A stretch of 64,000 bases of DNA from an uncultured Alphaproteobacteria bacterium (GCA_963792485.1 CAWBWL010000008.1:168871-232870), one strand, 5' to 3'. Positions 11,260 to 45,298 are shown, counted from the first letter of the stretch. The notes: generated from the sequence alone by a model not told the origin. Program-made: numbers and translations.

Positions 11260-11504
11260 GTTGCTCCAATAGCGGCGCCGGGACCCGGCTTCGGCTAAAT
11301 GTGTCTGCTACAGACAAATACATCCCCTGTCGCGAGAAAGCGACCTTGCAAGCTGTCCGAATCCCCCAGTTTATTTCGCCCGGCGACACCGCCGGTAACC
11401 ATTCATCCCGATTATTCACGTGACGTGATTATTGCTTCTTGCAACTTACTTGGCCTGCTGCCACAACCACTGCGGCACATCTCATGCAAATTCAGGGGCA
11501 GTTC

Positions 11505-13367
11505 ATGGCAATACGCATCGGCACTAACGGCGCCAACACGATCAGCGGCACAAACCAAAGCGACATAGTCTTCGCATTTGGGGGTGACGACCTCATCAGC
11601 ACCGGTGCTGGCAATGACTGGGTTTTCGCCGGCGCAGGCAATGACCAGATTTTCGCGGGCGACGGCAATGACTGGGTGTTTGCCGGGACCGGCAATGACG
11701 TTGCATCTGGCGGCAATGGCAATGACTTTCTTTATGGCGAAGCCGGAAACGACGTGCTCGACGGCGGCCGCGGCAGCGACATTGTCGATGGCGGCTCAGG
11801 CAGCGACACATTGATTTTCACCGATGCCGAACGCGGCGGCCTTGACCGCTACATCGGCGGCAGCGGCCAGGACTCGCTTGTGCTGGAGTTCGCAGCAGGG
11901 CGCTGGGCGGATGCTGCCGTGAAGGCGGAAGTCATTGCCTATCTCGACTTTCTCGCAGCGGGCGGCGCCGGCAATTTCACCTTCACGACCATGAACCTAA
12001 TCGTCAGCAGCGTAGAAGCGCTCGTCGTAAAGGTTGACGGCATCATCATCGACCCGCGCGCAGGCGGCAACACAGCGCCAACCGGCGTCGCCGACAGCTA
12101 CAGCACCGGCGAAAACGGCATTCTCACCGTCTCCCCCGCCACGGAGCGCGGCACGCTTGTTGACAATGACAACACTGGCACCGGCGCTTTCACGGTCGAG
12201 CTGGTCACAGGTCCGGCCGACGGTGCGCTGACGCTCAATGCCGATGGCACGTTCAGCTTCAATCCCGGCGCCGCGTTCGACTACCTGAATGCGGGCCAGT
12301 CTGCGATTGAGACTTTCACCTACCGGATCATCAACAACGCGGGCGCGTCCGGTCCAATTGCCGTGACGCTCAATATCACTGGCGCAAATGATGCGGCGGC
12401 AATCACCGGTAACTTGTCGGGAGCCATGAAAGAGGACAGTGTCGAAGAAGACAACGAAACCTATATTCTGACCACAAGCGGTCAAATCAACGTCGCGGAC
12501 GCCGATGCCGGACAGGCAGGCGTTGGCAATGCTGGCACATATGAAGGCGATTACGGTACACTGGTCCTCGCGTCTGACGGCAGCTGGGAGTACACGCTGA
12601 ACAACAGCTCGCCCGCCGTGCAGTCACTGGGCGAAGGCGTCACAGTCACGGACTCGTTCGAAGTAACCTCCATCGACGGCTCGGCAACACAGTCCATCAG
12701 CATAACGGTCGAAGGCACAAACGATTATCCAAGCCTGTACGGCGAAATGACAGGCACTGTGAACGAGGATGGGTCCACGGAGACCAATGAAGCCGGGACT
12801 TTGACGGCAACCGGACAGATCATTGTTTTTGACGACGATACCGGTGAATCGGGAGTTGCCGGAGCTGACGATCATCGTAGCTTATACGGCACGCTGGCTG
12901 TCGCTGAGGACGGAAGCTGGACCTATACTTTGGACAGCAACCTAGCCGAAATTCAGGCCCTCAGGGGTGGGGAAATCGTTGTCGACGCTATAATCGTCCC
13001 GACAGTCGACGGAACGGGAGCCACGGTCGCCATTATCATTGAAGGCGAGAACGATGCCGCGTTTGTTGATGGAATTTTCTCCGACACAATCACGCTGGCC
13101 TTTGAGGACACAAGCGCCGAAGGCTTCGTCACAGTTTCAGACGTGGACACAGGTGAAAGCGGCGTCGTGGCTGGCACCTATGCAGGCCTCTATGGCGATC
13201 TCACAATGGATGCCGACGGGCTCTGGATCTACCAGATTACCAATTTCGATCTTCCATTCGACGAAGCGACGACGTCGGTTTACGAAGGCTTCGCGGTTGA
13301 GACGCTGGGCGGCGACGTATTCAGCATCGACATCACAATCCAGCAAGACGGCTTCATCCTCGGCTAA
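11505..13367 (+). CDS. RTX calcium-binding repeat / VCBS-repeat protein, probable type I secretion substrate
   Basis: N-terminal GGxGxDxxx nonapeptide repeats (GNDWVFAGAGNDQIFAGDGND...). Downstream are repeated xDxDxGESG ... YGTLxxxxDGSWxYTL blocks typical of VCBS domains. No signal peptide. Confidence 0.7.
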   Translation: MAIRIGTNGANTISGTNQSDIVFAFGGDDLISTGAGNDWVFAGAGNDQIFAGDGNDWVFAGTGNDVASGGNGNDFLYGEAGNDVLDGGRGSDIVDGGSGSDTLIFTDAERGGLDRYIGGSGQDSLVLEFAAGRWADAAVKAEVIAYLDFLAAGGAGNFTFTTMNLIVSSVEALVVKVDGIIIDPRAGGNTAPTGVADSYSTGENGILTVSPATERGTLVDNDNTGTGAFTVELVTGPADGALTLNADGTFSFNPGAAFDYLNAGQSAIETFTYRIINNAGASGPIAVTLNITGANDAAAITGNLSGAMKEDSVEEDNETYILTTSGQINVADADAGQAGVGNAGTYEGDYGTLVLASDGSWEYTLNNSSPAVQSLGEGVTVTDSFEVTSIDGSATQSISITVEGTNDYPSLYGEMTGTVNEDGSTETNEAGTLTATGQIIVFDDDTGESGVAGADDHRSLYGTLAVAEDGSWTYTLDSNLAEIQALRGGEIVVDAIIVPTVDGTGATVAIIIEGENDAAFVDGIFSDTITLAFEDTSAEGFVTVSDVDTGESGVVAGTYAGLYGDLTMDADGLWIYQITNFDLPFDEATTSVYEGFAVETLGGDVFSIDITIQQDGFILG

Positions 13368-13418
13368 TCGCGCTGCGACTTGCATTGATCTAAAGCGCCG
13401 CCTGCGGGCGGCGTTTCT

Positions 13419-13877
13419 TTATCCGAGCAACGCTTTGATAACCCCGCTCGCTTTGCCAAAATCCATCTGCCCGGAAAACTGCGCCCGCAGTTCCGCCATA
13501 ACCTTGCCCATATCCTTGATCGAGGCCGCGCCTGTCTCCTTGATGATGGCGGCGATGGCTGCCTTCGTTTCCTCATCCGACAATTGCCTGGGCATATATC
13601 CCTGAATGATCACAATCTCGGCCCGCTCCTTGGCAGCGAGTTCGGGCCGGCCGGCCTTGTCATAGATCGCCGCTGATTCTTCGCGCTGCTTCACCATTTT
13701 GGTGAAAAGCTGCAACAGTTCATCATCGCTCGCAGCTTCCTTGCCAGTGCCCCGGTTGGCGATGTCGCGGTCCTTGATCGCCGCCTGCATCATGCGCAGC
13801 GTCGAAAGCCGGTCTTTCTCGCCAGCCTTCATGGCAGTCTTCACGTCCTCGGTAATTTTCTCGCGCATATCCGGCAT
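13419..13877 (-). CDS. GatB/YqeY domain-containing protein
   Basis: Full-length similarity to the YqeY family. Confidence 0.85.
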   Translation of the reverse strand: MPDMREKITEDVKTAMKAGEKDRLSTLRMMQAAIKDRDIANRGTGKEAASDDELLQLFTKMVKQREESAAIYDKAGRPELAAKERAEIVIIQGYMPRQLSDEETKAAIAAIIKETGAASIKDMGKVMAELRAQFSGQMDFGKASGVIKALLG

Positions 13878-23199: not shown

Positions 23200-26100
23200 A
23201 TGCCCAAGCGGACAGACATCAAGTCGATCCTCATCATCGGCGCGGGGCCGATCATTATTGGTCAGGCCTGCGAGTTTGATTATTCGGGCACGCAGGCGTG
23301 CAAGGCGCTGAAAGCGGAGGGCTACCGGGTCATTCTGGTCAATTCCAATCCGGCGACCATCATGACCGATCCGGAGCTGGCGGACGCGACTTATATTGAG
23401 CCGATCACGCCGGAGATTGTCGCCAAGATCATAGCGAAAGAGCGGCCCGACGCGCTGCTGCCGACCATGGGCGGGCAGACGGCGCTGAACACGGCTTTGT
23501 CGCTGCGCCGCATGGGCGTTTTGGAGCGCTATAATGTCGAGATGATCGGCGCGAACGCCGAGGCCATCGACATGGCCGAGGACCGGGCTTTGTTCCGCGA
23601 GGCGATGAAGCGGATCGGGCTGGAGACGCCGCGCTCCATGCTCGCCAACGCCACGGATGTGAAGGACCTTGACCGGCAGGCGCACAAGGCCAAGCGCGCC
23701 GCGCTGAAGGACACGCTGTCCGGCGAGGCGCTGGACGCGGCGCTTGACCGGCTGGAGAATGAATGGAACCTTGGCGAGAGCGACCGCAAGCAGCGCTATA
23801 TCAGCCATGCCATGGCCATCGCCGCCCGCGCCATTGACGAGATCGGGCTTCCCCTGATCATCCGCCCCTCCTTCACCATGGGCGGCACCGGCGGCGGCAT
23901 CGCCTATAACCGCTCGGAGTTTTTCGACATCATTGGAAGCGGCCTCGACGCCTCGCCGACCACCGAAGTGCTGATCGAGGAATCGGTGCTCGGCTGGAAG
24001 GAATATGAGATGGAAGTGGTCCGCGACAAGGCGGACAATTGCATCATCATCTGCTCCATCGAAAACCTCGACCCGATGGGCGTGCACACCGGCAACTCGA
24101 TCACCGTCGCCCCGGCGCTGACGCTGACCGACAAGGAATACCAGATCATGCGCAACGCCTCCATCGCGGTGCTGCGCGAGATTGGCGTCGAGACCGGCGG
24201 CTCGAATGTGCAGTTCGCGGTCAACCCGGCGGACGGGCGGCTCGTCGTCATCGAGATGAACCCGCGCGTCTCGCGCTCGTCCGCTTTGGCGTCGAAAGCC
24301 ACCGGCTTTCCCATCGCCAAGATCGCCGCGAAGCTCTCGGTCGGCTACACGCTGGATGAGCTGGAGAACGACATTACCGGCGGCGCGACGCCGGCCTCGT
24401 TCGAGCCGTCGATTGACTATGTCGTCACCAAAATCCCGCGCTTCGCCTTCGAAAAATTCCCCGGCGCGTCGAATGTTCTGACCACGGCGATGAAGTCGGT
24501 CGGCGAAGTCATGGCGATTGGCCGCACCTTCCAGGAGAGCCTGCAGAAAGCTCTGCGCGGCCTCGAAACCGGCCTCACCGGATTGGATGAAATCGAAATC
24601 CCCGGCATCGGCACGGGCGACGACCGCAACGCCATCCGCGCCGCATTAGGCACGCCGACGCCGGACCGGCTGCGCATGGTGACGCAGGCGATGCGGCTCG
24701 GCCTCACCAATGAGGCGATCCACGATTCAGCTGCAAGATCGACCCCTGGTTCCTCGAGCAGCTGCGCGAAATCATCGACATGGAAGCGCGCATCCGCGAG
24801 CATGGCCTGCCGCGAAGACGCGGAAAATCTGCGCATGCTCAAATCCATGGGCTTTTCCGACGCCCGCCTCGCCGCGCTCACCGGCAAGCGCGGCTCGGAA
24901 GTCGCCAAGCTGCGCAACAGCCTGAAAGTGCATCCGGTCTACAAGCGCATCGACACCTGCGCCGCCGAATTCGCCTCGCCGACCGCCTATATGTATTCGA
25001 CCTACGAGACGCCGTTTGTCGGCGAAACGCAGCTCTGAAGCCAAGGTCTCGGATCGGAAGAAAGTCGTCATTCTCGGCGGCGGTCCCAATAGAATTGGCC
25101 AGGGCATCGAGTTCGATTATTGCTGCTGCCATGCCTCTTTCGCGCTGCGCGAGGCGGGCTATGAATCGATCATGATCAACTGCAATCCGGAAACCGTGTC
25201 CACCGATTACGACACGAGCGACCGGCTGTATTTCGACCCGCTGACCGCCGAAGACGTGCTCGAAATTCTGCGCGTCGAGCGGGAGGCGGGAACGCTGCAC
25301 GGCGTCATCGTCCAGTTCGGCGGCCAGACGCCGCTGAAGCTCGCCGACGCGCTGGAGCGCGCCGGCATTCCGATCCTCGGCACCACGCCGGACGCGATTG
25401 ACTTGCCGAAGACCGCGACCGGTTCCAGAAACTACTCGTCAAGCTCGACCTCACCCAGCCGCAGAACGGCATCGCCTATTCGGTCGAACAGTCGCGCACC
25501 ATCGCCTCCGAGCTCGGCTTCCCGCTCGTCGTGCGCCCGTCCTATGTCTTGGGCGGCCGCGCCATGCAGATCATCAATGATGAAGGCATGCTGCAAAGCT
25601 ATCTGCTCGACACCGTGCCGGGCCTTGTCACCGAGGACATCAAGGCGAAATATCCGAACGACAAGACCGGCCAGATCAACACGCTGCTTGGCAAAAACCC
25701 GCTGCTGTTCGACCGCTATCTCACCGACGCCGTCGAGGTCGATGTCGATTGCCTGTGCGACGGCGAGGATGTCTATATTTCCGGCATCATGGAGCATATC
25801 GAAGAGGCCGGCATCCATTCCGGCGACTCGCGCCTGCTCGCTGCCGATCCACACGCTCTCCGACAAGGTCGTCGCCGAGCTTGAGGAGCAGACCGCCGCG
25901 CTCGCCCGCGCCCTGAAAGTCGGCGGGCTGATGAATGTGCAATACGCCATCAAGGACGAGCAGGTCTACGTTCTCGAAGTGAACCCCCGCGCCTCGCGCA
26001 CCGTGCCGTTCGTCGCCAAGGCCATCGGCCTTCCGATCGCCAAAATCGCCGCCCGCGTCATGGCCGGTGAAAAGCTCAACGAAGCCATCGCCCATTACGG

Positions 26101-26688
26101 CGAGCGCGTCGACCAGAAGAAGATGAAACATGTCGCGGTGAAGGAAGCCGTCTTCCCCTTCGCCCGCTTCCCCGGCGTTGACATCCTGCTCGGCCCCGAA
26201 ATGCGCTCCACGGGCGAGGTCATGGGCCTCGACCGCGACTTCGCCATGGCCTATGCCAAAGCCCAGCTCGGCGCCGGCGTGGACCTGCCGCGCTCCGGCA
26301 CGCTGTTCGTCTCGGTCAAGGACTAGCGACAAGCCCCGCATCCTGCCCGCCGTGGACACGCTGGCCAAGCTCGGCTTCAAAATCATGGCCACCACCGGCA
26401 CGGCGAATTTCCTGAAGGAAAACGGCATCGCAGGCCGAGAAAATCAACAAGGTCCTCGAAGGCCGCCCCCACATAGAAGACGCCATCCGCAACCGCCAGG
26501 TCCAGCTCGTGTTCAACACGACGGACGGCGCGAAAGCCGAGAGCGACAGCAAATCCCTGCGCCGCGCGACGCTGATGCAGAAGGTGCCCTATTCAACAAC
26601 CCTCTCCGGCGCGCTGGCGGCGGTGGAGGCGATTGCGGCGCTGAAGGCGGGGAATTTTGAGGTGCGGCCGCTGCAGGATTATGTGTGA
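23200..26688 (+). pseudogene. carB: Carbamoyl-phosphate synthase large subunit, interrupted by at least six 1-bp indels
   Basis: Colinear with CarB along the whole length (both ATP-grasp domains, oligomerisation domain, MGS-like domain). The frame changes near 24730/24795, 25030, 25415, 25845 and 26320. The stop TGA is at 26686-26688. Confidence 0.9.
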
Positions 26689-26692
26689 GGCG
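26625..26692 (+). repeat. Direct repeat, left copy (3-prime end of carB)
   Basis: About 68 bp, GTGGAGGCGATTGCGGCGCTGAAGGCGGGGAATTTTGAGGTGCGGCCGCTGCAGGATTATGTGTGAGGCGG. It matches 30000-30067 with about 6 mismatches. Confidence 0.85.
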
Positions 26693-26773
26693 GCGCTTCG
26701 CCGCTATTTCTACCAAACGACTTAAGCCACCTTTAATTCTTCAACGCTACGTAGGCGCTGGGGGAGGCTGACT

Positions 26774-27163
26774 ATGTCACTCAATATCCGCATCAAGGAT
26801 TTCGTCAACGCCCGCGAAGTTGACAGCGGGATTGTGCTCGATTGGATGAGCGGCGTGCCGATGACGCTTGAAGTTCTCATCTGCGAACGTGTCAGCGCCG
26901 AATTTGAACGTTTGCGCAATTACCCGGATCAAGGGCTTCCGGACTTCCATCCGCTGGTCGCGTGGGTCAAATCAGCGGATTTTGCGGCACTTCACGACAA
27001 AAGGCTGAAAGACGCGCAAGAAGTCGCGCTCGCGGGATTCATCTCGGGCTCCTTTTTCGTTGTCGTTGACGGAAAGCAGATTGAGGATCTGGGCAGCGAG
27101 CTGCGCCTTACGCCAACCTCCAATGTTCGCTTCATCCGCCTTGTTCAGTTAAAGGGAGGCTGA
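26774..27163 (+). CDS. Hypothetical 129-aa protein, first gene of the inserted cassette
   Basis: RBS GGGGGAGG before the ATG. No recognisable family. Its stop lies 3 nt before the next start, whose GGAGG RBS sits inside this gene's 3-prime end (translational coupling). Confidence 0.55.
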   Translation: MSLNIRIKDFVNAREVDSGIVLDWMSGVPMTLEVLICERVSAEFERLRNYPDQGLPDFHPLVAWVKSADFAALHDKRLKDAQEVALAGFISGSFFVVVDGKQIEDLGSELRLTPTSNVRFIRLVQLKGG

Positions 27164-27166
27164 GTA

Positions 27167-29806
27167 ATGTTCGGCAAGCTCAAGAACGCGCTCTTCGGCA
27201 CGCAAAGAGAAGAGCCGCGCTTCAGCGCAGCGCCCCCCGTGAGGAAAGCCTTCGGCATGGCATCCGTGCCGGTGGTTGCCCGCGCCGCTGTCACGCCTCA
27301 GGTCGAAGCACTGAACATTGGGCCAGTTTCTCAGGCCCTCTATCCGGGCAAGCGTGAAGATGCGCTGTTTCTGGAATGGGTTGACGCGGTTAACGCCCAT
27401 TTGCGGCAGATAAAGGATCGCGCCCCGGACCCGGATGCCCATGTCATTCGCTGGATTGCAGTCAGATTTTTGGGCAACAAGACGGCGGATTTGACAGAAT
27501 CGAACCAGACGCTTTTCGGGAGCGCACAAGAGCCGGCATGGGTTCGAAAAGCCATTGAGACAATCAATTCGGTAACGCCAAAGGGTCTGGGCTTCGGCAA
27601 TTACATGGGCCCCGATATCGTCACCGGCAAGAAGAAGTTGCTTTCCCGCGGCGAAGCCGAAAGGCTGTTGAAACTGCTCGACCGACCGCCGCTGGTCATT
27701 GAGGCTTGGAACGGCCTCTCGCCGCCGCTGGCTGAACTGCTGCGCTTTGACACGCTGGACGATGCCGCGTCGCTTCTCGCGCATCTCGGCACGGCCACTT
27801 CGGCCAGTCCGTCGGGGACTTGGGAGAAAACGGCGCAGGCGCTTGCCAAGAAGGCGGGAGCCGACGTCGTAAGAGAGCGTTTGACGCAATGGCTGTCGCT
27901 GCTTGCGGACAAAAGCCCTTCGCCAAAAGACGTGCGCGACGCCTCACTGCTTTGGCACATCGGATACCAGATGACGTTGCTTGCCAGGCTGCGCGACAAC
28001 GGCGTTTCGCCGACACATGCGGCGGCGCTGGCTTTCCTTGAATATGACTTCAAACCGGTTGCGCCCGTCATGCACCCCGATATGGCAAATGCCTTCCCCG
28101 CCAGCGACGGGCAGCCGATGGTGCTGTCCAAGGAAAATGCCAACCGGGCGCGCGGCGCAGTCTGGCTGCTGTCCGGTTTGGGAGGAACACAGCCGGCCCT
28201 GTTCGAGCGCCTCGCGCTTGCAAGTTTGAACAAGTATGACTTGGGCGGCACTTATAACACACGGCAATTCTGCTCGCAGGCGCTGGCGAATGCCTGCATT
28301 TTTGCGCTGGGCCGTGACGGTTCGCCGGACGCAATCATGGCGCTTGGCCGCATCCGCCGCCGCATCCGCGATGCCCGCATCGCCGCGCAGGTTGACAAGA
28401 CAATGCAGGCGGCGGCTGCCGCCGTTGGCATGTCGGCAATTGATCTTGAAGAGACGGCATTGCCGGATTTCGACATCGGACCTGAGGGCTGGACCGAATG
28501 CATCGACGGCAACGAACTGACGTTGGAGATCAAAACAGGCGGCGCTGAGATCATTTGCACATCCCCATCCGGCAAAGCGCTGAAAAGCCTGCCGGCGGCA
28601 GTCAAATCCACGGAAGCCTGCAAGGACATGAAGGCGGCGGCGGACGAGATTGACGCCTTGCTGCCATTGATCCGCTGGCGGCTTGAATCCTCGTGGCTCG
28701 GGCATCGCAAATGGTCGCTTGAGAACTGGCGCGAGCGCTATGGCGAGCATCCTGTTGCCCGCGCGGTGGCCGCCCCGTTGATTTGGTGGATCGAGCGCGA
28801 AGGCCGGATGACTTCCGCAATGTGGCGCGAAGGAAAGTTTTCCGATGTCGGCGGCGGCGAAGTGGCGACCGGTGGCGCCACCGTCCATCTGTGGCATCCA
28901 ATTGAGGACATAGCGGGCAATGTTATGGCCTGGCGGCGGCATCTGGTCAAAAACCGCATCGTGCAGCCATTCAAGCAGGCCCATCGCGAGGTTTATCCCT
29001 TGACCGATGCCGAGCGCGAAACCGGAACATTCTCCAACCGCTATGCGGCGCACATCCTCAAGCAGCACCAATATATGGCGCTGGCGAAATCACGCGGGTG
29101 GAAGGCGAGCCATCGCATGAATGTGGATGCGCCCAACGATGCGCCGGTGATGATCGATCTTCCGGCTTGGAAAATCTGGGCTGAGATATTCATAGAAGGC
29201 GCGGGCGGTGATGATCCAGAAACCGTTGACTCCGGCGCCTATGTCTATGTCTCGACCGACCAGGTCCGCTTCCATGGCGCTTCGGGCCGCTTGAACCTTG
29301 CCGAGGTTCCGCCACTGGCATTCTCGGAAGTGATGCGGGATTGCGACCTGTTCGTCGGGGTCGCCTCCATCGGCGCTGATCCGAACTGGAATAACGGCGG
29401 CGCTGATGCGCGCCGGCCGAACCAATGGGAGCGCCACGCAGCGGACTATTGGCACCGCATGTCGTTTGAGACCCTCTCCGAAAGCGCCAAACTGCGCAAG
29501 GAGCTGGTTGCCGAGTTGCTGCCGTCCATGACAATCGCGCCTCTGTGCGAAATCCATGACAAATATCTGCGCGTGAGGGGCAAGTTGCGGACCTACCGGA
29601 TTCACTTCAATTCCGGAAACATTCTGATGGAGCCAAACGACGCCTATCTTTGCATCGTTCCAGCCAATGTCGCGCCTTCCGGCGACAAAATCTACGTGCC
29701 GTTCGAAGGGGACCGGCTTCTGTCAATCATCCTGTCCAAAGCGATCATGCTGGCAAATGACAGCGCAATTCGAGAACAGCATATAATGAACCAGATTTCA
29801 CGCTGA
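27167..29806 (+). CDS. Large (879-aa) DUF4132-like protein (MolR C-terminal-domain family)
   Basis: C-terminal half carries motifs I recall as DUF4132 hallmarks: HLWHPIE ... IVQPFKQAHREVYPLTDAER ... FSEVMRDCDLFVGVASIGADPNWNNGG. The N-terminal 450 aa has no recognised domain and no WGR motif. Confidence 0.55.
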   Translation: MFGKLKNALFGTQREEPRFSAAPPVRKAFGMASVPVVARAAVTPQVEALNIGPVSQALYPGKREDALFLEWVDAVNAHLRQIKDRAPDPDAHVIRWIAVRFLGNKTADLTESNQTLFGSAQEPAWVRKAIETINSVTPKGLGFGNYMGPDIVTGKKKLLSRGEAERLLKLLDRPPLVIEAWNGLSPPLAELLRFDTLDDAASLLAHLGTATSASPSGTWEKTAQALAKKAGADVVRERLTQWLSLLADKSPSPKDVRDASLLWHIGYQMTLLARLRDNGVSPTHAAALAFLEYDFKPVAPVMHPDMANAFPASDGQPMVLSKENANRARGAVWLLSGLGGTQPALFERLALASLNKYDLGGTYNTRQFCSQALANACIFALGRDGSPDAIMALGRIRRRIRDARIAAQVDKTMQAAAAAVGMSAIDLEETALPDFDIGPEGWTECIDGNELTLEIKTGGAEIICTSPSGKALKSLPAAVKSTEACKDMKAAADEIDALLPLIRWRLESSWLGHRKWSLENWRERYGEHPVARAVAAPLIWWIEREGRMTSAMWREGKFSDVGGGEVATGGATVHLWHPIEDIAGNVMAWRRHLVKNRIVQPFKQAHREVYPLTDAERETGTFSNRYAAHILKQHQYMALAKSRGWKASHRMNVDAPNDAPVMIDLPAWKIWAEIFIEGAGGDDPETVDSGAYVYVSTDQVRFHGASGRLNLAEVPPLAFSEVMRDCDLFVGVASIGADPNWNNGGADARRPNQWERHAADYWHRMSFETLSESAKLRKELVAELLPSMTIAPLCEIHDKYLRVRGKLRTYRIHFNSGNILMEPNDAYLCIVPANVAPSGDKIYVPFEGDRLLSIILSKAIMLANDSAIREQHIMNQISR

Positions 29807-29999
29807 TCGGCGTCTCGCTGATACGAACACTGTGGCGGAAGCCGGCGCACTGCTTCACCGCACTTCCGCCTGCCATTCCCGCTGCATCCGCACTTTGCCG
29901 CCCAGCGTCACCGTCACGATCCCCTCACACGTCCACGCCGGCCAGCCGCCATTCGGGCGCATTTTGCCGGTGAACAGGAGATATTGCGCCTTGCTGCAG

Positions 30000-30067
30000 T
30001 GGAGGTGATTGCGGCGCTGAAGGCGGGGAATTTCGAAGTGCGGCCGCTGCGGGATTATGTGTGAAGG
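30000..30067 (+). repeat. Direct repeat, right copy (degenerate carB 3-prime terminus, non-coding here)
   Basis: GTGGAGGTGATTGCGGCGCTGAAGGCGGGGAATTTCGAAGTGCGGCCGCTGCGGGATTATGTGTGAAGGCGG. Confidence 0.85.
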
Positions 30068-30074
30068 CGGACGG

Positions 30075-30377
30075 CTACCCCGCCCGCGCCTCAATCCGCT
30101 GCATGCCCTCTTCCGAGACCGTCGCCAGATCATAGTTCGCCTGCAAATTCATCCAGAACTGCGGCGTGGTGCCAAAATAGCGCGCCAGACGCTTGGCTGT
30201 GTCGGCGGTGACTTCGCGCTTCTCACGGATGATTTTTTCAATTCTGTCGCGCGGCACAAACAGCGCTCTGGCCAGCGAACCGGCGGTCAGCTGGTAGTCG
30301 GGAAGAAAGTCCTCCCGCAGAATTTCTCCGGGATGCACCGGGCGGGGTGACAGCTCATCCATGCGCGTTCCCCTCAA
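30075..30377 (-). CDS. higA: HigA-family antitoxin (XRE-type HTH)
   Basis: HPGEILREDFL ... LARALFVPRDRIEKIIREKREVTADTAKRLARYFGTTPQFWMNLQ is the canonical HigA/VapI HTH. Confidence 0.85.
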   Translation of the reverse strand: MRGTRMDELSPRPVHPGEILREDFLPDYQLTAGSLARALFVPRDRIEKIIREKREVTADTAKRLARYFGTTPQFWMNLQANYDLATVSEEGMQRIEARAG

Positions 30378-30658
30378 TGGTAATCAACAATTTCAACGTC
30401 ATAGGCATCATTGTCCTTCCAGACAAAGCATATCCGCCAATGGATATTGATTCTGATCGAATATTGTCCGTCTCTGTCGCCGCTCAATCCCTCCAGATGA
30501 TTTGAGGGCGGAACCCGCAAGTCTGAGATATCAGCGGCGGCATCCAGCTGGGCCAAACGCCGCTGCGCCCGCGCCACAATGTCGCCGGGAAATCCTTTGA
30601 CATGCCGGCCTGCCCGCAGGGCTTGTACTCGCTTGTCCTTGATATTTCTGATCAATGC
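30374..30658 (-). CDS. higB: HigB-family toxin (RelE/ParE superfamily, plasmid-maintenance killer type). Probable TTG start; overlaps higA by 4 nt.
   Basis: C-terminal LEGLSGDRDGQYSIRINIHWRICFVWKDNDAYDVEIVDYH closely resembles Proteus HigB. The N-terminus IRNIKDKRVQALRAG aligns with HigB MIKSFKHKGLKLLF. No in-frame ATG at this position, so a TTG start is assumed. Confidence 0.7.
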   Translation of the reverse strand, partial: ALIRNIKDKRVQALRAGRHVKGFPGDIVARAQRRLAQLDAAADISDLRVPPSNHLEGLSGDRDGQYSIRINIHWRICFVWKDNDAYDVEIVDYH

Positions 30659-30912
30659 AACGTATCCTAATAAGATACAAAAATCAAGTCCGAATTTTCT
30701 AACTTTCAGTTGCCCATTTGTTGCCAAAATACAACTCCCCTCTCCCGCCTTCAACCTCCCCGCACATTCCCCTTGCGTCACCATGCCGTTGCGCCTATCC
30801 GCCCGCCTCCCGGATGACACCGTCCGAGCCGAACGCGGTTCAAGCTCGTGAGCTTGGCCGACGCGCCCCCGCTGGGTGAGCGTGTGTTGAGGCCGGAAGA
30901 GGACGTTTGGGA

Positions 30913-30987
30913 TTGGCATGTAGCTCAATGGTTAGAGCGCTGGCTTCAGGTGCCAGAGGTAATAGGTTCGAATCCTGTCATGCTGCC
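30913..30987 (+). tRNA. tRNA-like sequence 1 (canonical D-arm and T-arm, anticodon-loop TTCAGGT = CAG, short variable loop, imperfect acceptor)
   Basis: TAGCTCAATGGTTAGAGC D-arm; CTGGC/GCCAG anticodon stem; GGTTCGAATCC T-arm; CCA present at 30985-30987. A CAG anticodon on a class I scaffold is abnormal. Possibly a pseudo-tRNA, or a tRNA hit by the same indel problem. Confidence 0.35.
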
Positions 30988-30988
30988 A

Positions 30989-31062
30989 CTGCGAAATAGC
31001 TCAGTTGGTTAGAGCAACAGATTAAGGTTCTGTCGGTCGAAGGTTCGATTCCTTCTACGCAC
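30989..31062 (+). tRNA. tRNA-like sequence 2 (canonical D- and T-arms, anticodon-loop TTAAGGT, acceptor stem not pairable)
   Basis: TAGCTCAGTTGGTTAGAGC; ACAGA/TCTGT anticodon stem; GAAGGTTCGATTCCTTC T-arm. The 5-prime TGCGAAA cannot pair with the 3-prime TACGCAC. Confidence 0.3.
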
Positions 31063-31414
31063 TCCGCAGTCTGAAAAACTGCAATCAGCCTATGAAGCTG
31101 ACTTACCAAATGAGCCCTTCGGGGAAGTTTGTTCCAGACTTGGAACCATCTGCGGGCTTCGGCTCAAGGGCGGGAAAAAGAAAGGAACAGCGGCGGCTTT
31201 GCCAGCGTTTTGGCGGAAGCGGCGCGCGCATTCAGGTCCGGCTTTGGGCGCGCCCATAGCTTCGCCTTTATCGCCCGCGCCGGTGAACTCTTAACCCGCA
31301 AGGCCCCCGTCACGGCTTTCCCGAAGGGTGTTCGCGCTCCGATCAACCCTTAACCCCAACAACACAGGAAACACACGACCCATGCCATGAGCTGACGTGC
31401 ATATTGAAAGGACC

Positions 31415-32581
31415 ATGACGATGACCGAGACAAAGAAGATTTTCACCCGCACCCGCATCACCGTGCCGGAAGGCGAGCGCGCGCTTGTGCTGGTCAACGG
31501 CAGGTTCGACGCGATCCTGCGCCCGGGCCGCCACGCAATCCCGTCTCTGTTCTCCTCCGTCAAGGTCGAGGCCTTTCAGCTCGTCAACGCGGCGTTCGTG
31601 AGCCCGTATGAGCAGGCGCTTGTGGCAAGCCGTCCGGATCTGGTCTCCGAGCACTTCACGGATGTGCGCACGTCGGCGGACGAGGTCGGCGTGATCTACC
31701 GCGACGGCAAGTTCCTTGTCGTGCAGAAGCCGGATGCGCGCCAGCTGTTCTGGACAGATGCCGGGCCGTGGAAGGCTGAGCTGATCGACGTGTCGGTCTC
31801 GCTCGAAGTGCCTGCGAAACTGGCGCAGCGCATCGGCGTGAGCGACCGCGTCAAGCGCTTCAGCGTCGAGGACGGTCAGGCGGGCCTGCTCTACATCGAC
31901 AACGCCTATGTGCGTTTGCTCGATGCGGGCGCCTACGCGTTCTGGAACGTTGGCCGCACGGTCTCGGTCAAGATCGTCGACACGCGCCAGCATGCGCTGG
32001 ATGTGACGGGGCAGGAAGTCTTGACCCGCGACAAAGTCTCGCTGCGTGTCAACCTGGTGGCCAAATACGCCGTGGTTGATGTGGTCAAGGCCGTGTCGAG
32101 CGTGAAGGATTATGCGGATGCGCTTTACCGCGCCTTGCAGCATGCCTTCCGCCAGTCGCTGTCGGCAAAGTCTTTGGATGAAATCCTCTCCCGCAAGGGC
32201 GAGGTCGATCTGGAGGCTGCAAAGCAGGTGCGCGATGAGATGGCGGCCATCGGTCTGGAGGTCGGCGACATCTCGATCAAGGACGTCATCCTGCCGGGCG
32301 ACATGCGCGACATGCTGAACAAGGTCGTGAACGCGGAGAAGGAGGCGGAAGCCAACGTCATCCGCCGCCGCGAGGAGACCAACGCGACGCGCTCCCTGCT
32401 CAACACGGCGAAGATCATGGCCGAAAACCCGGTCATGCTGCGCCTGAAGGAGCTGGAAGCGCTCGAAAAGATCGCCGACAAGGTCCAGACGCTGACCGTT
32501 CACAACGGCACGCAGGGCCTGCTCAACGATCTGGTCAGCCTCGGCGCGCCCAAGCCTTTGAAGCGCGCTGGCGCCAAGTGA
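31415..32581 (+). CDS. SPFH/band-7 (stomatin-prohibitin-flotillin-HflK/C) domain protein
   Basis: Central SPFH-like region followed by a long coiled-coil / Ala-Glu-rich C-terminus. RBS AAGGA before ATGACCGAG. Confidence 0.7.
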   Translation: MTMTETKKIFTRTRITVPEGERALVLVNGRFDAILRPGRHAIPSLFSSVKVEAFQLVNAAFVSPYEQALVASRPDLVSEHFTDVRTSADEVGVIYRDGKFLVVQKPDARQLFWTDAGPWKAELIDVSVSLEVPAKLAQRIGVSDRVKRFSVEDGQAGLLYIDNAYVRLLDAGAYAFWNVGRTVSVKIVDTRQHALDVTGQEVLTRDKVSLRVNLVAKYAVVDVVKAVSSVKDYADALYRALQHAFRQSLSAKSLDEILSRKGEVDLEAAKQVRDEMAAIGLEVGDISIKDVILPGDMRDMLNKVVNAEKEAEANVIRRREETNATRSLLNTAKIMAENPVMLRLKELEALEKIADKVQTLTVHNGTQGLLNDLVSLGAPKPLKRAGAK

Positions 32582-32790
32582 AACGACCCGCCCCGGCCGG
32601 AATTGGCCGGGGCGGCACCCATCTTGCCGCATTCCGACTTTTGCGTTAATACTTTCGTATCGAATTTGAAGACCGAACGAGATGCCCCGCGATTATTCGC
32701 AAGCTGACGCTTCCCTCAAAATTTCGATCCAACCGCTGGTCAGACCTTGTGTGGCCGGCACGTCAACTGCGAAAAAGGAAATAAAATCAA

Positions 32791-33000
32791 ATGGCTACAG
32801 GAACCGTAAAATGGTTTAACGGTCAAAAAGGCTTCGGCTTCATTCAGCCGGACGCCGGCGGCGCGGATGTGTTTGTGCACGTCTCGGCCGTCGAGCGCTC
32901 AGGTCTTGGACAGCTCAATGAAGGCCAGAAAGTCAATTATGAGCTGGTGCAGGACAAGCGCACCGGCAAGACTTCGGCAGGCGAACTTTCCGCCGCCTGA
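32791..33000 (+). CDS. cspA: Cold-shock protein, CspA family
   Basis: [18 protein letters not shown] ... DVFVH are the RNP1/RNP2 motifs. Confidence 0.9.
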
Positions 33001-33020
33001 TCTGATAACGCGGCGCGCGG

Positions 33021-35182
<2,162 letters not shown>

Positions 35183-35195: not shown

Positions 35196-35275
35196 ACGGC
35201 GGTGTGTGGGTCGGCGTTTGGGCTGGGGCCTAATTTCCGGATCAGCTATGCCACGAGCGCCAACCTATCCTGCGA
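35196..35275 (+). repeat. Degenerate duplicate of the aatA 3-prime coding end (would encode ...[17 protein letters not shown]...), directly abutting low-GC DNA
   Basis: Compare 35057-35128 with 35196-35263. GC content drops sharply from about 35264. Confidence 0.75.
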
Positions 35276-35380
35276 ATAATTATCGTATGAATAAATATGT
35301 CATTATCCAACTTGCCTCAATGGCATAATTTCCAGTGCAAATAAGTGTTGTTAAAGCGCAAGAGAATAAATAGCGGTTCT

Positions 35381-36424
35381 TCATTCTAATATCTCGTGAC
35401 AAGCTTCAATCTTGCTTGCATTCGTTTTTGGTTGATCCGATAGTTGCATCTGCATACTGTCTGTTGACTTGTAGCCATGCTCGGCGAAAGCCATTTTGGC
35501 TTTCGTCGTTTTACAAGAGAGCCGCTCGCTGCCGCCCGCCAAAAACCAAGATGTGGTCCATGTGTCCCATGACGGGATGAGGCCTTTATAGCCGATTGTT
35601 TTGAGTTTGCGGGCTCTCTTGTGCGCATGCATCGTCAGTTCATCACTCCCTATGGATGCGACCATTCCCGGGCTGATCATTCGTTGGCCTACTCCCGTTT
35701 TGTAGGTTACGGTCCAGACCTTGTTTGGGTGATGATCGAGAAGATATTTCACTGCCATGCGATCTTCCGCAACGTTCATATCTCTGAAAGCGAATGGCAA
35801 ATATCTGTTCTGACTGAATTGCTCACCCTTAGACCTTCCGCCTACAGTGAGTATCTTGATTACCTCTTTGCTCTCTATGAGGCCCGATTTCAGGAGGATT
35901 GCCGAAACAGTGACAGGGCCAAGTTCGGCGATCACAACCTTCCCGTTGATCTTGATTACGTCGGCTATCTCAGAAAGCATCTTGATGTCATTTGCATCAA
36001 CTTTCGATGCCGCATCAAATGGCATACGCCGCTTCGGCCCGTGGTAAACAGGCCAAGCTCCCAAGTTCAGCTCTTTAAGCCTTACTTTCAAATTAGCATG
36101 AACTTGGCTGGTGCTTGAGCCGCCATTGCCAAAAATAGAGACGATTCCAATGACTTTAATACAGCCCAATTTTTCTAGCCGTGAATACATGTAGAGCGAA
36201 ATTGAGTCATCAATCTCCCCCATACGGGTTGCATCAGAGACTATGAGAGTTGGTAATGTCAGCGCACTTGCACAGCTTGGCTTTGATCCGAAGAAGTGCT
36301 CTTCAAGACCATTTGCGAACGCAAATCCTACATTCCCCGCAAGCATCGCAGCGATAAACAATTTGATTCTGATCACCGGCAAGCCCCCGCTTTGGCGGAG
36401 AAATATCAGCGCCGTCTCATTCAA
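35381..36424 (-). CDS. Secreted hypothetical protein in low-GC islet, possibly nucleoside hydrolase (IUNH)-like
   Basis: Signal-peptide-like N-terminus. LIVSDATRMGEIDD and VIGIVSIFGNGGS loosely resemble the IU-nucleoside hydrolase Asp-cluster and GN motifs. Low GC. Confidence 0.4.
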   Translation of the reverse strand: MNETALIFLRQSGGLPVIRIKLFIAAMLAGNVGFAFANGLEEHFFGSKPSCASALTLPTLIVSDATRMGEIDDSISLYMYSRLEKLGCIKVIGIVSIFGNGGSSTSQVHANLKVRLKELNLGAWPVYHGPKRRMPFDAASKVDANDIKMLSEIADVIKINGKVVIAELGPVTVSAILLKSGLIESKEVIKILTVGGRSKGEQFSQNRYLPFAFRDMNVAEDRMAVKYLLDHHPNKVWTVTYKTGVGQRMISPGMVASIGSDELTMHAHKRARKLKTIGYKGLIPSWDTWTTSWFLAGGSERLSCKTTKAKMAFAEHGYKSTDSMQMQLSDQPKTNASKIEACHEILE

Positions 36425-38274: not shown

Positions 38275-38601
38275 CGAAGCCGCGGCCCCGGCATTGAAAT
38301 TCTGAAGCAATCCGCCCGGCATCCCGCGCGGCAACGATCCCGCATGAATTACGGCGGCAGAAACCGAGTCCCGCAAAGCGGGAAACATATTTTGCGCGAA
38401 GGACGTTGGCAAATGGCAGGCGGACGCATTCGACCTCATGGCGCGGGGCGGCAGGCATCGCAACGGGAAATCGCGGGCGACACTTGCATCCCTAGCCGCA
38501 TAATGAAACGATAGACCTTGCCGCCCGGGAGAGGCGGCAGATGCGACGGCTGCACGCCGGCCGCCGCTCCTGTTTCAACACGAAAATGGGAGGTCACAAT
38601 C

Positions 38602-40652
38602 ATGGGAAAACGCGCCGGAGGACGAGCTTCGGGTCCGAAATGCATCGCCATTGTCGGGCCCTTCGCATCAGGCAAAACCTCGCTGTTCGAGGCGATACTT
38701 GAGCGCACCAAAGCGATAGCGAAAGCCGCCAAGGCCGGGTCCGGCAACACGGTCGGCGACAATTCTCCCGAAGCCAAAGCCCATCAGATGAGCGTCGAGG
38801 CCGCCGTTGCGACGACCTCCTATATGGGCGAAAGCCTGACCTTCATCGATTGCCCCGGCTCGGTCGAATTCGCGTTTGAAGCCGAACCCGTCCTCGCCGC
38901 CGCCGATATGGCCATTGTCGTCGCCGAGCCCGACGAGAAGAAAATCCCCGCGCTGCAATTGGTCCTGCGCCGCCTCGAAGACCTCGGCCTGCCGCACATG
39001 CTATTTTTGAACAAGATCGACAAGGCGTCCGGCTCCGTGCGCGACATATTGAAACTCCTGCAGCCGGCCTCCAAAACCCCGCTGCTTTTGCGCCAGATCC
39101 CGATCTGGAAGGACGGCATCGCCATCGGCACGATCGACCTTGCCTCCGAGCGCGCCTATGTCTTCCGCGAACACGCCGAAAGCGAAGTCATCGCCATTCC
39201 CGACGCGGACAAGGCGCGCGAGGTGGAAGCCCGCTATTCCATGCTCGAGCGCCTCTCCGACCATGACGATGCGCTGATGGAACAGCTGCTCGAAGACATC
39301 CCCCCGCCCATGGACGAGGTGTTCGACGATCTGGCGGCGGATTTGCGCGATGGCTCCGTCGTGCCGGTATTTATCGGCGCCGCCGAAAACGGCAATGGCA
39401 TCACGCGCCTCTTGAAAGCCATCCGCCATGACGGCCCTGACGCCGCGATGACCGCCAAGCGCCTCGGCGTCAAAGCCAACGGCCCGGTCCTGCAGGTGAT
39501 GAAGACAATCCACACTTCGCATGCCGGAAAATTGTCCGTCGCCCGCGTTTTGTCGGGATCGGTCTCGGACAGCATGGAAGTTATGGGCGGCGGCGCATCG
39601 GGCAAAGTCTCCGGCCTGTTCACGCTGATGGGCAAGGACGCAAAGAAAATCTCCAGCGCCCAGACCGGCGACACGGTAGCGCTCGGCAAGCTCGACGCAA
39701 TTGCCACCGGCGCAACGCTTGGCTCGGCCAAGGAACTTGCAACCGCGCTCAACGGCACCGCCAAACCCGCGCCAGTCATGTCCATCGCCGTCCGGGCCAA
39801 AGAGCGCAAGGACGAGGTCAAACTCTCCGCCGCCCTGCACCGCATCGCCGACGAGGACCCCTCGCTCTCTGTCGAGCATAATCAGGTCACCGCCGAAACG
39901 ATCATTGGCGGCCAAGGCGAAATGCATCTGCGCGTGGCCTTGGAAAGACTGTCCGGCCGCTACGGCGTGGCGATTGACACGCACGAGCCGCTCGTCGCCT
40001 GGCGCGAGACGATCAAAGGATCAACCCAAGTGCGCGGCCGCCACAAGAAACAGTCCGGCGGCCATGGCCAGTTCGGCGACGTCGTCATCGAGATCAAGCC
40101 GCTGCCGCGCGGCGACGGCTTCGTCTTCACCGACACAGTGACCGGCGGCGTGGTGCCGAAACAGTATATCCCTCGGTCGAGGAAGGCGTGCGCGACTATC
40201 TGAAGAGCGGCCCGCTCGGTTTCCCGCTGGTCGATCTGGCGGTGAACCTCTCGGAAGGCTCGTACCACACGGTCGACTCCTCCGACATGGCGTTCCAGCT
40301 GGCGGCGAAAATCGCCATGAAAGAGGGTCTGTCCGCCTGCGGCTCGGTTCTACTGGAACCTGTCATGAAAGTGACGGTCACAACCCCCGAAAGCGCCATG
40401 GCGAGCGTGACCACGATTCTGACCCAGCGCCGCGGGCAGATATTGGGCTTCAACCCGCGCGAGGGCTGGGACAATTGGAACATCATCGAAACGCTGATGC
40501 CGCAATCGGAACTCAAGGGTCTGATCGTCGAACTGCGCTCGGCAACCTCCGGCGTCGCCGGCTATACTGCGGTGTTCGACCATATGGCGGAACTGTCGGG
40601 GCGTCTGGCGGACGAGGTGATCAAGGGGCACGGAGCAAGAGCTGCGGCCTGA
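38602..40652 (+). pseudogene. Elongation factor G-like GTPase paralog, frameshifted near 40175
   Basis: P-loop GPFASGKTS. EF-G domain II-V similarity (RGRHKKQSGGHGQFGDVVIEIKPLPRGDGFVFTDTVTGG ... YLKSGPLGFPLVDLAV ... EPVMKVTVTTPE). The C-terminal 154 aa are in another frame. RBS GGGAGG. Confidence 0.7.
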
Positions 40653-43056
40653 TCAGGCGCGGCGGGCCTTGTTCACGGCATCACGCCTGGACTTGGCTTC
40701 GCTGAGCGCTTCCTGGCCCTTCAGCCGCCGGCTGGTCTCGCTGAGCAGGAACGCCGGAATCTGAGCCGACGGGATCGGGCGGCCGAAATGGAACCCCTGC
40801 ATCTGGCTGCAGGCCATGGTCGACAGATACAGCGCCTGATCGGCGTTCTCGACGCCCTCAGCCGTGACGGAGAGGTTGAGGATTTTGCCGAGCCGCGCAA
40901 TGGTCTCAAGGATATCACGCGCCGTCTTGTCCTTCTCAATGGAGCGGATGAACGACTGGTCGATCTTCAATTTGTCGAACGGGAATTTGAGGAGATAGGA
41001 CAAGCTCGAATAACCCGTGCCGAAATCGTCGAGCGAGGTCATCACGCCGAGCGCTTTGAGATCGTTCAGCGCCGTCAGCGCCTCCTCGGTGTTGTCGACA
41101 AACAGGCCTTCGGTGATTTCGAGCTCAAGCCGGGCGGGCGTGAGGCCAGTGGCCTTCAGCGCATGTTTGGCCGAATTGACGATCCGGCGGTTTGTGGAAC
41201 TGCTGCGGCGACAGATTGACCGAAATCGTCATATGCTCCGGCCAGGCCGACGCCGTGCGGCACGCCTCCATCAGCACCCAGTCGCCAATCTCGCAGATCA
41301 GCCCGGTCTTTTCGGCAAGCGGAATGAAATCCGAAGGCGGCACCTGGCCGCGGGTCGGGTGGTTCCAGCGGATCAGCGCCTCAAAGCCGCTGGTCGTGTC
41401 GTCAAGCGCCGAGACAAGCGGCTGAAAATGCAGCTCGAACTGATTTGCCGCCAGCGCCCCGCGCAATTCCTGCTCAAGAATTCGGCGGTCGCGCACAATA
41501 TCGTCCATCTTGGTTTCAAAGAAGCGGAACGTGCCCTTCCCTTCTTCCTTCGCGCGGTAGAGTCCGAGATCAGCGCTGTTAAGCAGCGCTTCAACGCCGG
41601 CTCCGTCCTGCGGCGCGATGGCTATGCCGATCGAGACGCCGACCGAGACGACATGGGCATCAATTTCAAAAGGCTTGTTGATCGCCTCAATGATCTTGTC
41701 TGCCAATGCCGACAAAGAGCGGACCGAAATTTCATTGCGCAAAAGCACGCCAAACTCGTCTCCGCCGAGTCGGGCCACCACGTCGGAGTCGCGCAATGCC
41801 TTCTTCAGGCGCGCGCCGACTTCAACGAGCAGTTCGTCGCCAACCTTGTGCCCTTTGGTGTCATTGATCAGCTTAAAGCCGTCGAGATCGAGATAGAACA
41901 CCGAAAACTGAACGCCATCCGACAGGCGGCGGCTTTCAAAGCAGCGCTCAATGGCTTGTGAAAAATGCGTGCGGTTGACGAGGCCCGTCAGCGCGTCATT
42001 ATGGGCGAGATAGGCGATGCGCTCATTGGACTGCTTGTCATGCGTGATATCAGATGCGACGCCCCGATAGCCGGTGAACTTTCCATCCTTGTCGACGAGT
42101 GGCTTGCCGCTAAGCGCAAACCAGACTTCGCTGCCATTGCCCTTGGCGACATTCAATTCCAAGCCATTGAACGGCTTCCTGGTCTGAATGGATTGCAGGA
42201 ATTTGGCAAAACCCTTACTCCGGACATGTGCAGATTTCCGCAAGTCCAGCAGCTTTTCGGCGTTAGCCGCCATCTTGATGACGTCTTGCTCAATGCCTGT
42301 GGCTTGGTGAAACCGCTGCGAGCCGCGTGTCATCGTGCCGCTGGCTTCTGTTTCCCAAAGCCAGTCGCTGGCGCCTTCCTCAAAATCATTGAGAAGAAGG
42401 CCAATGATCGATGCTTGCTCCTCGACCTTTAAGGCGGAAATCTTGCTTGCGGCAAACATTCGCGCCACCGTCAAACTGGCTGTCAGCAATGAGCCGTAAT
42501 ACATCAAAAGCAGCGCGCCGACGGTAATATCCCCGGGGCCGCGGCTCATGGTCAAAGCGACCAAAAAGCTGCCGAAAATCCCTGACAAATAACCCACCAG
42601 CGCGTGCGGCACCATGTAAAGCGCGAAACATCCGCCGCCCATCATGCCCCCGACAAAGCCCACAATGATAAGCTTGGTGGCCAGATCACCGCCCGGATAA
42701 GCCAAAAGTGGAACGGCGCCCCAGAGGAGACCCAAGAGCGTTGAATTGATCGCCACTTTACTGATCGTGCGTTCGGAAACGCGGTTTGGAAACGGCCTTG
42801 CCTTGGACTTGCGCCACGAATGATAGCCGCTGAACGCCATGGCGTAGATTAAGGCGGTCCAGACAAACACGCCAAACGCGAACGGCATTCCGGAGAAGGC
42901 CATGCAGATGATCGTAGCATTGACTGCGTTTCCCGCCATCATCAATGGAGTTACGCCGATCACAGCTTTTAGCTGATGCGCGCGGAACTCCGCCGGATCC
43001 TTGGCCTCACTGCCAGCTGACAACGAAAACCGGTCCCTCAAATGTTGAAAAATCAT
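40653..43056 (-). pseudogene. Membrane-anchored PAS-GGDEF-EAL c-di-GMP signalling protein, frameshifted in the EAL domain (about 41050-41230)
   Basis: Multiple TM helices. GGDEF domain (RLGGDEFGVLL). EAL domain split across ORFs 41125..43056 and 40653..41045 (EALIRW ... DDFGTGYSSLSYL). Confidence 0.8.
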
Positions 43057-44298: not shown

Positions 44299-44329
44299 GG
44301 TCCCTCCCAGGCGCGGCGCGGCCGCAGTG

Positions 44330-45298
<969 letters not shown>

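Follow-up and report, generated by a model that had tools for sequence, protein, structure and literature searches.

The DNA analysed here, a stretch of 64,000 nucleotides (nt) from an uncultured Alphaproteobacteria bacterium, is referred to as the window, and all coordinates are counted from its first letter. Directly downstream of carB, the gene for the large subunit of carbamoyl-phosphate synthase, it carries a cassette of two genes, one encoding a small protein that ends in Gly-Gly and the other a protein of 879 amino acids (aa) with the domains DUF4132 and DUF7737. This operon is enclosed by two direct copies of the carB 3' end. A higBA toxin-antitoxin (TA) module and two tRNA-type genes follow the cassette, as the initial annotation had noted and as the family and Rfam matches agree (Table 1). 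The locus was compared with L001, an independent ENA contig from a different strain that is 96% identical to the window, with the closest relatives L171, L172 and L173, all of which come from metagenome assemblies, and with the relatives L002, L003 and L170.

Table 1. Features at the carB locus, in window coordinates
Feature	Coordinates	Strand	Basis
carB, carbamoyl-phosphate synthase large subunit	23200..26688	+	Frame analysis; 91-96% nt identity to carB of L171, L172 and L173
Left repeat copy, functional carB terminus (24 codons and TGA)	26614..26688	+	Peptide as in the carB ends of L002, L171, L172 and L173
Terminator-like hairpin with T-rich tail, directly after the carB stop	26685..26702	+	Consensus scan only; sequence common to L001
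129-aa small protein ending ...LVQLKGG	26774..27163	+	Open reading frame; C-terminal Gly-Gly family
879-aa protein, DUF4132 (residues 469-645) and DUF7737 (774-877)	27167..29806	+	Pfam E 4e-45 and 8e-34
Spacer between operon and second copy	29807..29989	.	No homologue except in L001, 177/183 identical
Right repeat copy, displaced and non-functional carB terminus	29990..30064	+	A to V and Q to R relative to all functional copies
higA antitoxin	30075..30377	-	TIGR02607, E 1.9e-29, 101.3 bits vs cut-off 47.7; HTH_3
higB toxin, start approximate (listed reading frame runs to 30928)	30374..30652	-	PF05015, E 2.7e-15
Conserved non-coding segment, about 190 nt, right boundary of the slot	30720..30912	+	Found in L003, L171, L172 (two copies) and L173
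Two tandem tRNA-type genes after higBA, 1 nt apart	30914-30987, 30989-31065		Rfam tRNA, 59 and 50 bits

A single direct repeat stands out in the region from 25 to 32 kb. Its two copies are 75 nt long, identical at 68 of the 75 positions (91%) and spaced 3376 nt apart; both are in frame, and each consists of the last 24 codons of carB and the TGA stop, the encoded peptide starting with LAAVE(A/V) and ending with (Q/R)DYV. Gapped BLAST widens the repeat to 26609-26693 and 29986-30070 (86 columns, 89.5% identity, E 2.5e-26 within the flanks). Local alignment of the upstream against the downstream flank gave a score of 58.5, compared with a mean of 10.4 and a maximum of 16 for a null of 600 mismatched flank pairs. 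The carB-end repeat is real and far above chance. The repeat of about 68 bp with about 6 mismatches that had been noticed initially (26625-26692 and 30000-30067) falls inside it, and the ORF (open reading frame) coordinates bear out that the copies enclose exactly the 129-aa and 879-aa genes. The GC content of the cassette had been called somewhat lower than that of the flanks, which holds in direction (0.555-0.63 vs 0.59-0.66 in carB), but the difference is marginal. No third copy, as a tandem island array would have, was detected by blastn-short or tblastn in the whole 64-kb window or in L001.

The match to L001 extends over window positions 26687-30065 at 96% identity, with spacer and second copy included. 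Because the same junction between spacer and second copy is present in this independent contig, the duplication junction is not an assembly artefact. A microhomology of 4-5 nt (GCGC) links this junction to the bases ahead of the left copy, and the terminator-like hairpin sits within the left edge of the inserted segment. Homologues of the spacer were found in L001 only (blastn and tblastx against all loci), and the ORF on its minus strand matched no Pfam or PHROG family. A 19-nt stretch of the spacer (29877-29895) is 84% complementary to part of the right copy (30036-30054), possibly by chance in GC-rich DNA.

The carB gene of the window reads through only once three +1 frame changes have been corrected. 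Comparison with L171, L172 and L173 places window-specific single-base insertions at 24814, 25031, 25829, 26325 and 26432, and the frame breaks are probably indel errors of the assembly and not the mark of a pseudogene. The last 83 aa of carB are identical between the window and L171, L172 and L173, and the left copy differs from the carB end of L172 by 1 nt. All functional carB ends (window left copy, L002, L171, L172 and L173) encode an identical C-terminal peptide. The right copies carry replacements found in no functional copy, A to V and Q to R in the window and K to E in L001. The left copy thus completes carB, as had been proposed when one repeat was said to restore the gene end, and the right copy is a displaced, dead and decaying carB terminus. 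That the second copy could be a conserved terminator or regulatory element is ruled out, as it is in frame, carries unique aa changes and is absent from relatives without the cassette. Both the window and the relatives stem from error-prone long-read metagenome assemblies with many split genes, which affects any pseudogene call in the window. Split or truncated genes are found at 33496-35182, 38518-40203 and 41125-43056 (an aminotransferase, an EF-G-like GTPase and a GGDEF-EAL protein), as well as in L001 (PAD_porph, 5059-7201) and in L171 and L172 (carB).

The order of events is indicated by L001 and L173. Positions 3300-3990 of L001, which hold the second copy (3304-3378) and ParDE, are collinear with positions 3421-4133 of L173, which hold a genuine carB end and ParD, so that the second copy of L001 aligns to the real carB end of L173. 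The right copy and what follows it therefore represent the original arrangement downstream of carB, and the operon with a fresh carB end was placed before it. Furthermore, the three differences common to the right copies of the window and L001 (CTT, GCT and TTC) are all synonymous (p about 0.02). TTC is the state of the functional L173 allele, and two of the three shared synonymous sites abut the junction. These shared differences are weak evidence; they suggest that the repeat copies go back to two different functional alleles of carB, and speak against a duplication by staggered cuts.

Each of the three closest relatives holds a single carB end that is directly followed by other DNA. In L171 (carB 93.7% identical at the nt level) this is a HicB remnant and then the conserved segment that starts at window position 30720. 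In L172 (95.7%) it is HicA-HicB, the conserved segment, a GGT gene and a second copy of the segment, and in L173 (91-92%) it is ParD followed by DNA corresponding to window 30720-33652, with the tRNA-like pair, SPFH and GST. Tblastn detected no remnants of the cassette in these relatives. Judged by these three loci, the gene pair is accessory and constitutes an insertion relative to the closest relatives, in agreement with the initial annotation. Among GTDB species representatives no close relative was found, the top identity of the carB C terminus being 78-80% (Chelativorans and Aliihoeflea). The cassette was present within 10 kb of carB in 0 of 80 such loci, in genomes that are too distant to act as empty sites.

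Other relatives carry the operon. L001 has the same operon, spacer and second copy as the window, followed by ParDE and not by higBA. L170, where carB is 77% identical at the aa level over its last 159 residues, has the operon with a small protein 81% identical to that of the window. L002 (carB 90% identical at the nt level) and L003, a contig that holds just the last 29 nt of carB, have a diverged operon (large protein 68% and small protein 44% identical at the aa level) and no second carB copy. Relatives with the same pair and no repeat had been named in advance as a finding that would speak against an insertion; L002 and L003 come partway to this, their pair being the diverged one. The small protein of the window is 81% identical to that of L170, where the carB end is 77% identical, but 44.5% identical to that of L002, where the carB end is 97.5% identical. 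This incongruence between operon and carB similarity indicates exchange between lineages.

In every relative compared, homology to the window ends within two bases of the carB TGA and, where the contig allows, resumes at window position 30719-30720. The interval is therefore a hypervariable slot with sharp conserved edges. It is filled by the operon, the second copy and higBA in the window, by the diverged operon in L003, by HicAB and GGT in L172, by a HicB remnant in L171 and by ParD in L173. Of the hicAB pair that is intact in L172 (11116-11196), L171 has just the hicB 3' end left (11622-11701), an instance of TA decay in the slot. The segment at the right edge has a mean column identity of 87% across six copies and precedes the tRNA-like pair. 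It matched no Rfam family and could be a promoter or leader, or an unannotated RNA. In L172 the GGT gene is bracketed by direct repeats of about 200 nt of this same boundary segment (11191-11389 and 13378-13577). The duplication around GGT has the same footprint as the carB cassette, with another insert and another repeat, which points to a generic recombination route.

We favour the explanation that the 3,376-bp accessory operon was gained by homology-driven (RecA-type) recombination anchored in carB, with no dedicated integrase, and estimate its probability at roughly 55%. The incoming DNA would have brought the last ~70-75 nt of a carB gene with it; the copy now attached to the carB body keeps the gene intact, and the displaced one is dead and decaying. 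The founding event may have been the single-crossover (Campbell-type) integration of a circularised fragment or, alternatively, one-sided homologous recombination closed by a microhomology join at GCGC. The operon is now flanked by carB homology on both sides. It could be copied by ordinary double crossover into strains with a similar carB end, whatever lies downstream, and could be lost by recombination between the repeats. Such flanks would account for the occurrence of the same operon and junction before higBA in the window and before parDE in L001.

No integrase or transposase domain was found in the two cassette genes or the spacer ORF, searched against Pfam, NCBIfam, PADLOC and PHROGs, or in the downstream ORFs tested from 26.7 to 47 kb (up to greA). 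The DNA upstream of the cassette is core synteny common to L171 and L172, and no recombinase was found there. Across 89 loci that bear the operon no recurrent integrase lies beside it, and terminal inverted repeats are missing from the ends of the cassette. The initial annotation's statement that no integrase or transposase is present thus agrees with the domain scans of the ORFs tested. Its proposal of a site-specific insertion at the carB 3' end stands as regards the insertion but not as regards site-specificity, with no recombinase found and with L002 and L003 lacking the repeat.

Several points weigh against homology-driven gain. The mechanism is read from its footprint only, and sequence data can show neither recombination intermediates nor a dependence on RecA; an integrase encoded elsewhere in the genome and acting in trans is a serious rival. 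L002 and L003 hold the operon at this position without the repeat, which may therefore mark a replacement and not the first arrival. The empty site that had been predicted, carB directly followed by higA, was not found among the relatives, and this check yielded only the carB-ParD arrangement of L173, collinear with the second copy and ParDE of L001. Sliding-window identity against L171, L172, L173 and L002 did not resolve a recombination breakpoint in carB. L172 is closest throughout, so the nearest relative does not change toward the 3' end and a donor-derived carB tail is not demonstrated. Between the window and L001 the second copies differ at 6 of 75 positions, compared with 8 of 268 in the operon's own non-coding DNA. 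A partly host-derived second copy would give a difference in this direction, but the excess is not significant (p = 0.09). Finally, a distant member of the family, L123, has a similar gene-end duplication at a different gene, which could reflect a property of the operon.

The footprint can also be read as that of a small integrative element, or the decayed remnant of one, with the carB 3' end as its attachment (att) site, a recombinase that was lost or acts in trans, and the two repeats as attL and attR. We regard this as possible but clearly less probable than homology-driven gain. Such elements classically leave direct repeats of a housekeeping-gene 3' end and a restored gene, close relatives have empty sites, and the same cassette and junction stand before two contexts, higBA and ParDE. 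Furthermore, every relative breaks exactly at the carB stop, as at a recombination hot spot, and at least three diverged lineages have the cassette immediately behind carB (the window with L001, L170, and L002 with L003). Set against this, no recombinase was found in the cassette, in the ORFs tested across 20 kb of downstream DNA or, in the syntenic relatives, upstream, and none recurs by the operon in the 89 loci. The second copy is missing from L002 and L003, there is no third copy as in a tandem array, and the GGT insert of L172 shows the same footprint with another repeated sequence, which makes a carB-specific att site unnecessary. The GGT insert bears in the same way on the idea that the module mobilises itself, the DUF4132/DUF7737 protein and its Gly-Gly partner being, or recruiting, a machinery that inserts at the 3' ends of genes with duplication of 55-75 nt of the target. 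Such an activity would fit the lack of any other mobility gene and the module of L123, which comes from an unrelated organism, is about 36% identical and lies between two copies, 55-60 nt long, of the 3' end of an aminotransferase gene in convergent orientation (the last ~15 codons and the stop; 4835-4894 and 8109-8166; flank score 32 vs the null maximum of 16), an independent second case of the footprint. Flanking gene-end repeats were found, however, at just 2 of 36 testable loci, and the copies at carB were probably not identical at birth, their three shared differences being synonymous; with an unrelated gene in the same footprint in L172, we consider self-mobilisation very unlikely. A flanking repeat at L152 (4183-4297 and 8264-8377; 117 nt, 79% identity) encloses the module and one extra ORF. 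It was rejected as an insertion scar, as it is AT-rich, contains GCGATCGC and is probably a dispersed cyanobacterial repeat.

The remaining explanations concern the second copy and its junction. The operon could be ancestral at this position, the second copy having arrived with the TA module as a fragment of carB 3' end plus TA inserted downstream. Versions of the operon do lie directly after carB in L002, L003 and L170, without a repeat in the first two, and TA modules abut the carB stop in the cassette-free L172 (HicAB) and L173 (ParD), from where an excised fragment would carry a carB end. This explanation is nevertheless improbable. The window and L001 share the junction but not the TA module, which would require two insertions at the same nucleotide or a later swap of the TA module; the three relatives closest by carB have no operon, so the operon itself is variable; and L173 and L001 come close to differing by the operon and one repeat only. 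The duplication might be an assembly artefact in which two strains were joined at the carB end, as the quality of the assemblies and their many split genes could invite, and the L001 contig does start exactly at the carB stop. The junction between spacer and second copy has, however, no overlap that could cause a false join, and a separate assembly, from another strain, shows it again at 96-97% identity; an artefact is thus hardly credible.

The larger of the two cassette proteins matches PF13569 with 154.3 bits and PF24879 with 116.1 bits, both against a cut-off of 27. Its N-terminal region consists of helical repeats with only HEAT/ARM-type matches, and its AlphaFold2 (AF2) model has a predicted local distance difference test score (pLDDT) of 62. 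Searches of defence-system, phage and NCBIfam libraries with both cassette proteins returned nothing informative, the sole match being PHROG 20839, and the literature recovered on DUF4132 and DUF7737 consists of incidental mentions.

The 129-aa protein matched no Pfam, NCBIfam, PADLOC or PHROG family. A shallow profile of its family collects 275 cluster representatives at E<=1e-3 (examples of homologues are L123 4962-5351 and L175 1024-1428). Gly-Gly stands directly before the stop in all 63 homologues inspected (63/63), typically as ...LVPLVGG, and G128 and G129 are invariant in the alignment. This free, invariant C-terminal Gly-Gly resembles the ubiquitin-like beta-grasp proteins ThiS and MoaD. 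The AF2 model (pLDDT 61, from a 4-sequence alignment) has an order of strands and helices compatible with a beta-grasp fold carrying an insert. The small protein differs from these families, however, in having no significant sequence or structure match to them. Foldseek with the model returned nothing significant, the best match being ubiquitin at E 1.6, and a profile search of the PDB with the family gave no match. ThiS was matched by 1 of 49 family members (E 0.028), and a profile comparison with ThiS/MoaD by hhalign was negative (probability 1%). A Pfam scan of the 879-aa partner detected no E1-like (ThiF/MoeB) adenylating domain.

The two genes keep company elsewhere. In other genomes and metagenomes, each homologue of the large protein (33-47% identity) is preceded by a small gene that abuts its start, and the neighbourhoods are unrelated. 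At 85 further metagenome loci a homologue of the small protein was detectable in 67, and in 57 of these 67 it lies directly upstream. Since the only neighbours that recur across the 89 operon-bearing loci are the operon's own two genes, they form a self-contained two-gene module. Large plasmids from several phyla also carry members of the family; phage records do not.

Within the operon the two proteins diverge unevenly. Between L002 and L003 the small protein is 92% and the large protein 75% identical; between the window and L169/L170 the small protein is ~81% identical, and the N terminus of the large protein only 48-53%. This mosaic divergence suggests internal recombination or a fast evolution of the N-terminal region of the large protein.

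The drA0165-drA0166 operon of Deinococcus radiodurans is described as strongly induced on depletion of DdrO, the repressor of the DNA-damage response (PMC8533742). The gene directly upstream of DRA0166, which is a DUF4132 protein, encodes a 134-aa protein ending in ...LAGG that matches the family profile with a probability of 98% (E 7.6e-14). The order of a GG-ended small protein directly upstream of a DUF4132 protein is the same as in the cassette. DRA0166 differs in length, with about 1,626 aa vs 879 aa, and is just 25% identical over its C-terminal half. By gene order and profile match, this operon belongs to the two-gene module of the cassette.

It may be speculated that Gly-Gly and DUF4132/DUF7737 proteins make up a ubiquitin-like, DNA-damage-linked system that travels as a two-gene unit and lands preferentially at the 3' ends of housekeeping genes together with a copy of the target end, as at carB here and at the aminotransferase gene in L123. 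We consider this unlikely; if true, it would imply either an insertion mechanism specific to the module or a new, recombinase-independent spread of small gene cassettes. The module, which is represented at hundreds of metagenome loci as well as on plasmids from several phyla, is a more promising lead than the repeat.

Downstream of the right copy, the stop of higA lies 10 nt past the TGA. The PF05015 match in higB (57 bits against 27) covers residues 111-184 of the 184-aa ORF. The bodies of the tRNA-type genes are conserved in relatives (L003 3444-3593 and L173 4341-4490), and their anticodon stem-loops are not. The first gene has CAG in the window and 6-nt loops with compensatory stem changes in L003 and L173, and where the second has AAG (Leu) in the window, L003 and L173 have TGG (Pro). 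In L171 and L172 the two genes are degenerate or truncated. The pair may represent unusual tRNA-like elements, or indel errors may account for the differences. Further downstream, a low-GC island at 35200-36400 (0.465-0.515 vs about 0.60-0.65 around it) contains a 347-aa ORF with a sub-threshold match to nucleoside hydrolases, and may be another horizontally acquired segment. In Rhizobium and Ensifer, greA directly follows carB; in the window the block from LysR to greA (43400-47008) lies about 17-20 kb from carB and is inverted relative to those genera. In Aliihoeflea, the EF-G-like gene found here at 38589-39351 lies 1.4 kb after carB. The displaced greA block and the position of the EF-G-like gene in Aliihoeflea therefore indicate that the whole region downstream of carB has been rearranged in this lineage.

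Genomic islands and integrative elements with a housekeeping-gene 3' end as their target include SGI1 at trmE and the dusA-targeting islands (PMC8409611, PMC6531882). The carB cassette resembles these in its repeats derived from the target 3' end, in the gene being kept intact by one repeat and in the empty sites of relatives. It differs from them in that no integrase, excisionase or mobilisation gene was found, in its size of 3.4 kb with two cargo genes, and in a 75-nt repeat that is imperfect and for which no evidence of att function was found. A literature search for carB as an attachment site was swamped by matches to "carbapenem". The cis-mobilisable elements (CIMEs) of the ICESt1/ICESt3 family of integrative and conjugative elements (ICEs) in streptococci are att-flanked segments without recombination or transfer genes of their own, and are defined by recognition by the integrase of a cognate ICE. 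The cassette is similarly flanked by att-like repeats with no recombination or conjugation genes between them, but no ICE or integrase with specificity for the carB end is known, or visible in the window or the loci. A transposon or insertion sequence was rejected, there being no transposase domain and no terminal inverted repeats, and the 75-nt duplication being probably not identical at its origin. An integron cassette array was rejected as well, as there are no attC-like inverted structures between units and no integrase (a dedicated attC model was not run).

On balance, the insert is classed as an accessory cassette that has no integrase, lies in a hypervariable slot and was, somewhat more likely than not, formed by insertion-duplication. 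This is an ordinary kind of gene gain, and there is no sign of a new mobile-element mechanism. The locus provides a natural example of a small accessory operon gained at the end of an essential gene without mobile-element machinery, with filled, empty and alternatively filled alleles in close relatives, and the nucleotide after the carB stop is a sharp boundary of a hypervariable slot in this Hyphomicrobiales group. Neither the gain of the cassette nor the cargo module overturns current understanding, and both give testable leads.

In insertion-duplication of the Campbell type, as in the cassette, an insert is anchored by short homology and flanked by its duplication and/or by a microhomology junction (here GCGC). 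Homology-facilitated illegitimate recombination and insertion-duplication were reportedly demonstrated by experiment in transformable bacteria by de Vries and Wackernagel in 2002 and by Prudhomme and co-workers in 2002, whereas the mechanism at carB is drawn from the footprint it left. Minimal mobile elements in Neisseria were reportedly the subject of work by Saunders and Snyder in 2002. These elements are described as a fixed slot between conserved flanks that holds alternative small gene sets (PMC1797815; see also PMC3787668). The carB stop and the segment at 30720 likewise frame alternative small gene sets without mobility genes, which implies an exchange of these sets through homologous recombination within their flanks. 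Unlike Neisseria, the organism studied here is not known to be naturally transformable. A further difference is that the carB-end flank is present a second time within the slot, so that the cassette has another homology arm of its own; this suggests that gene ends, when duplicated, can serve as portable homology arms.

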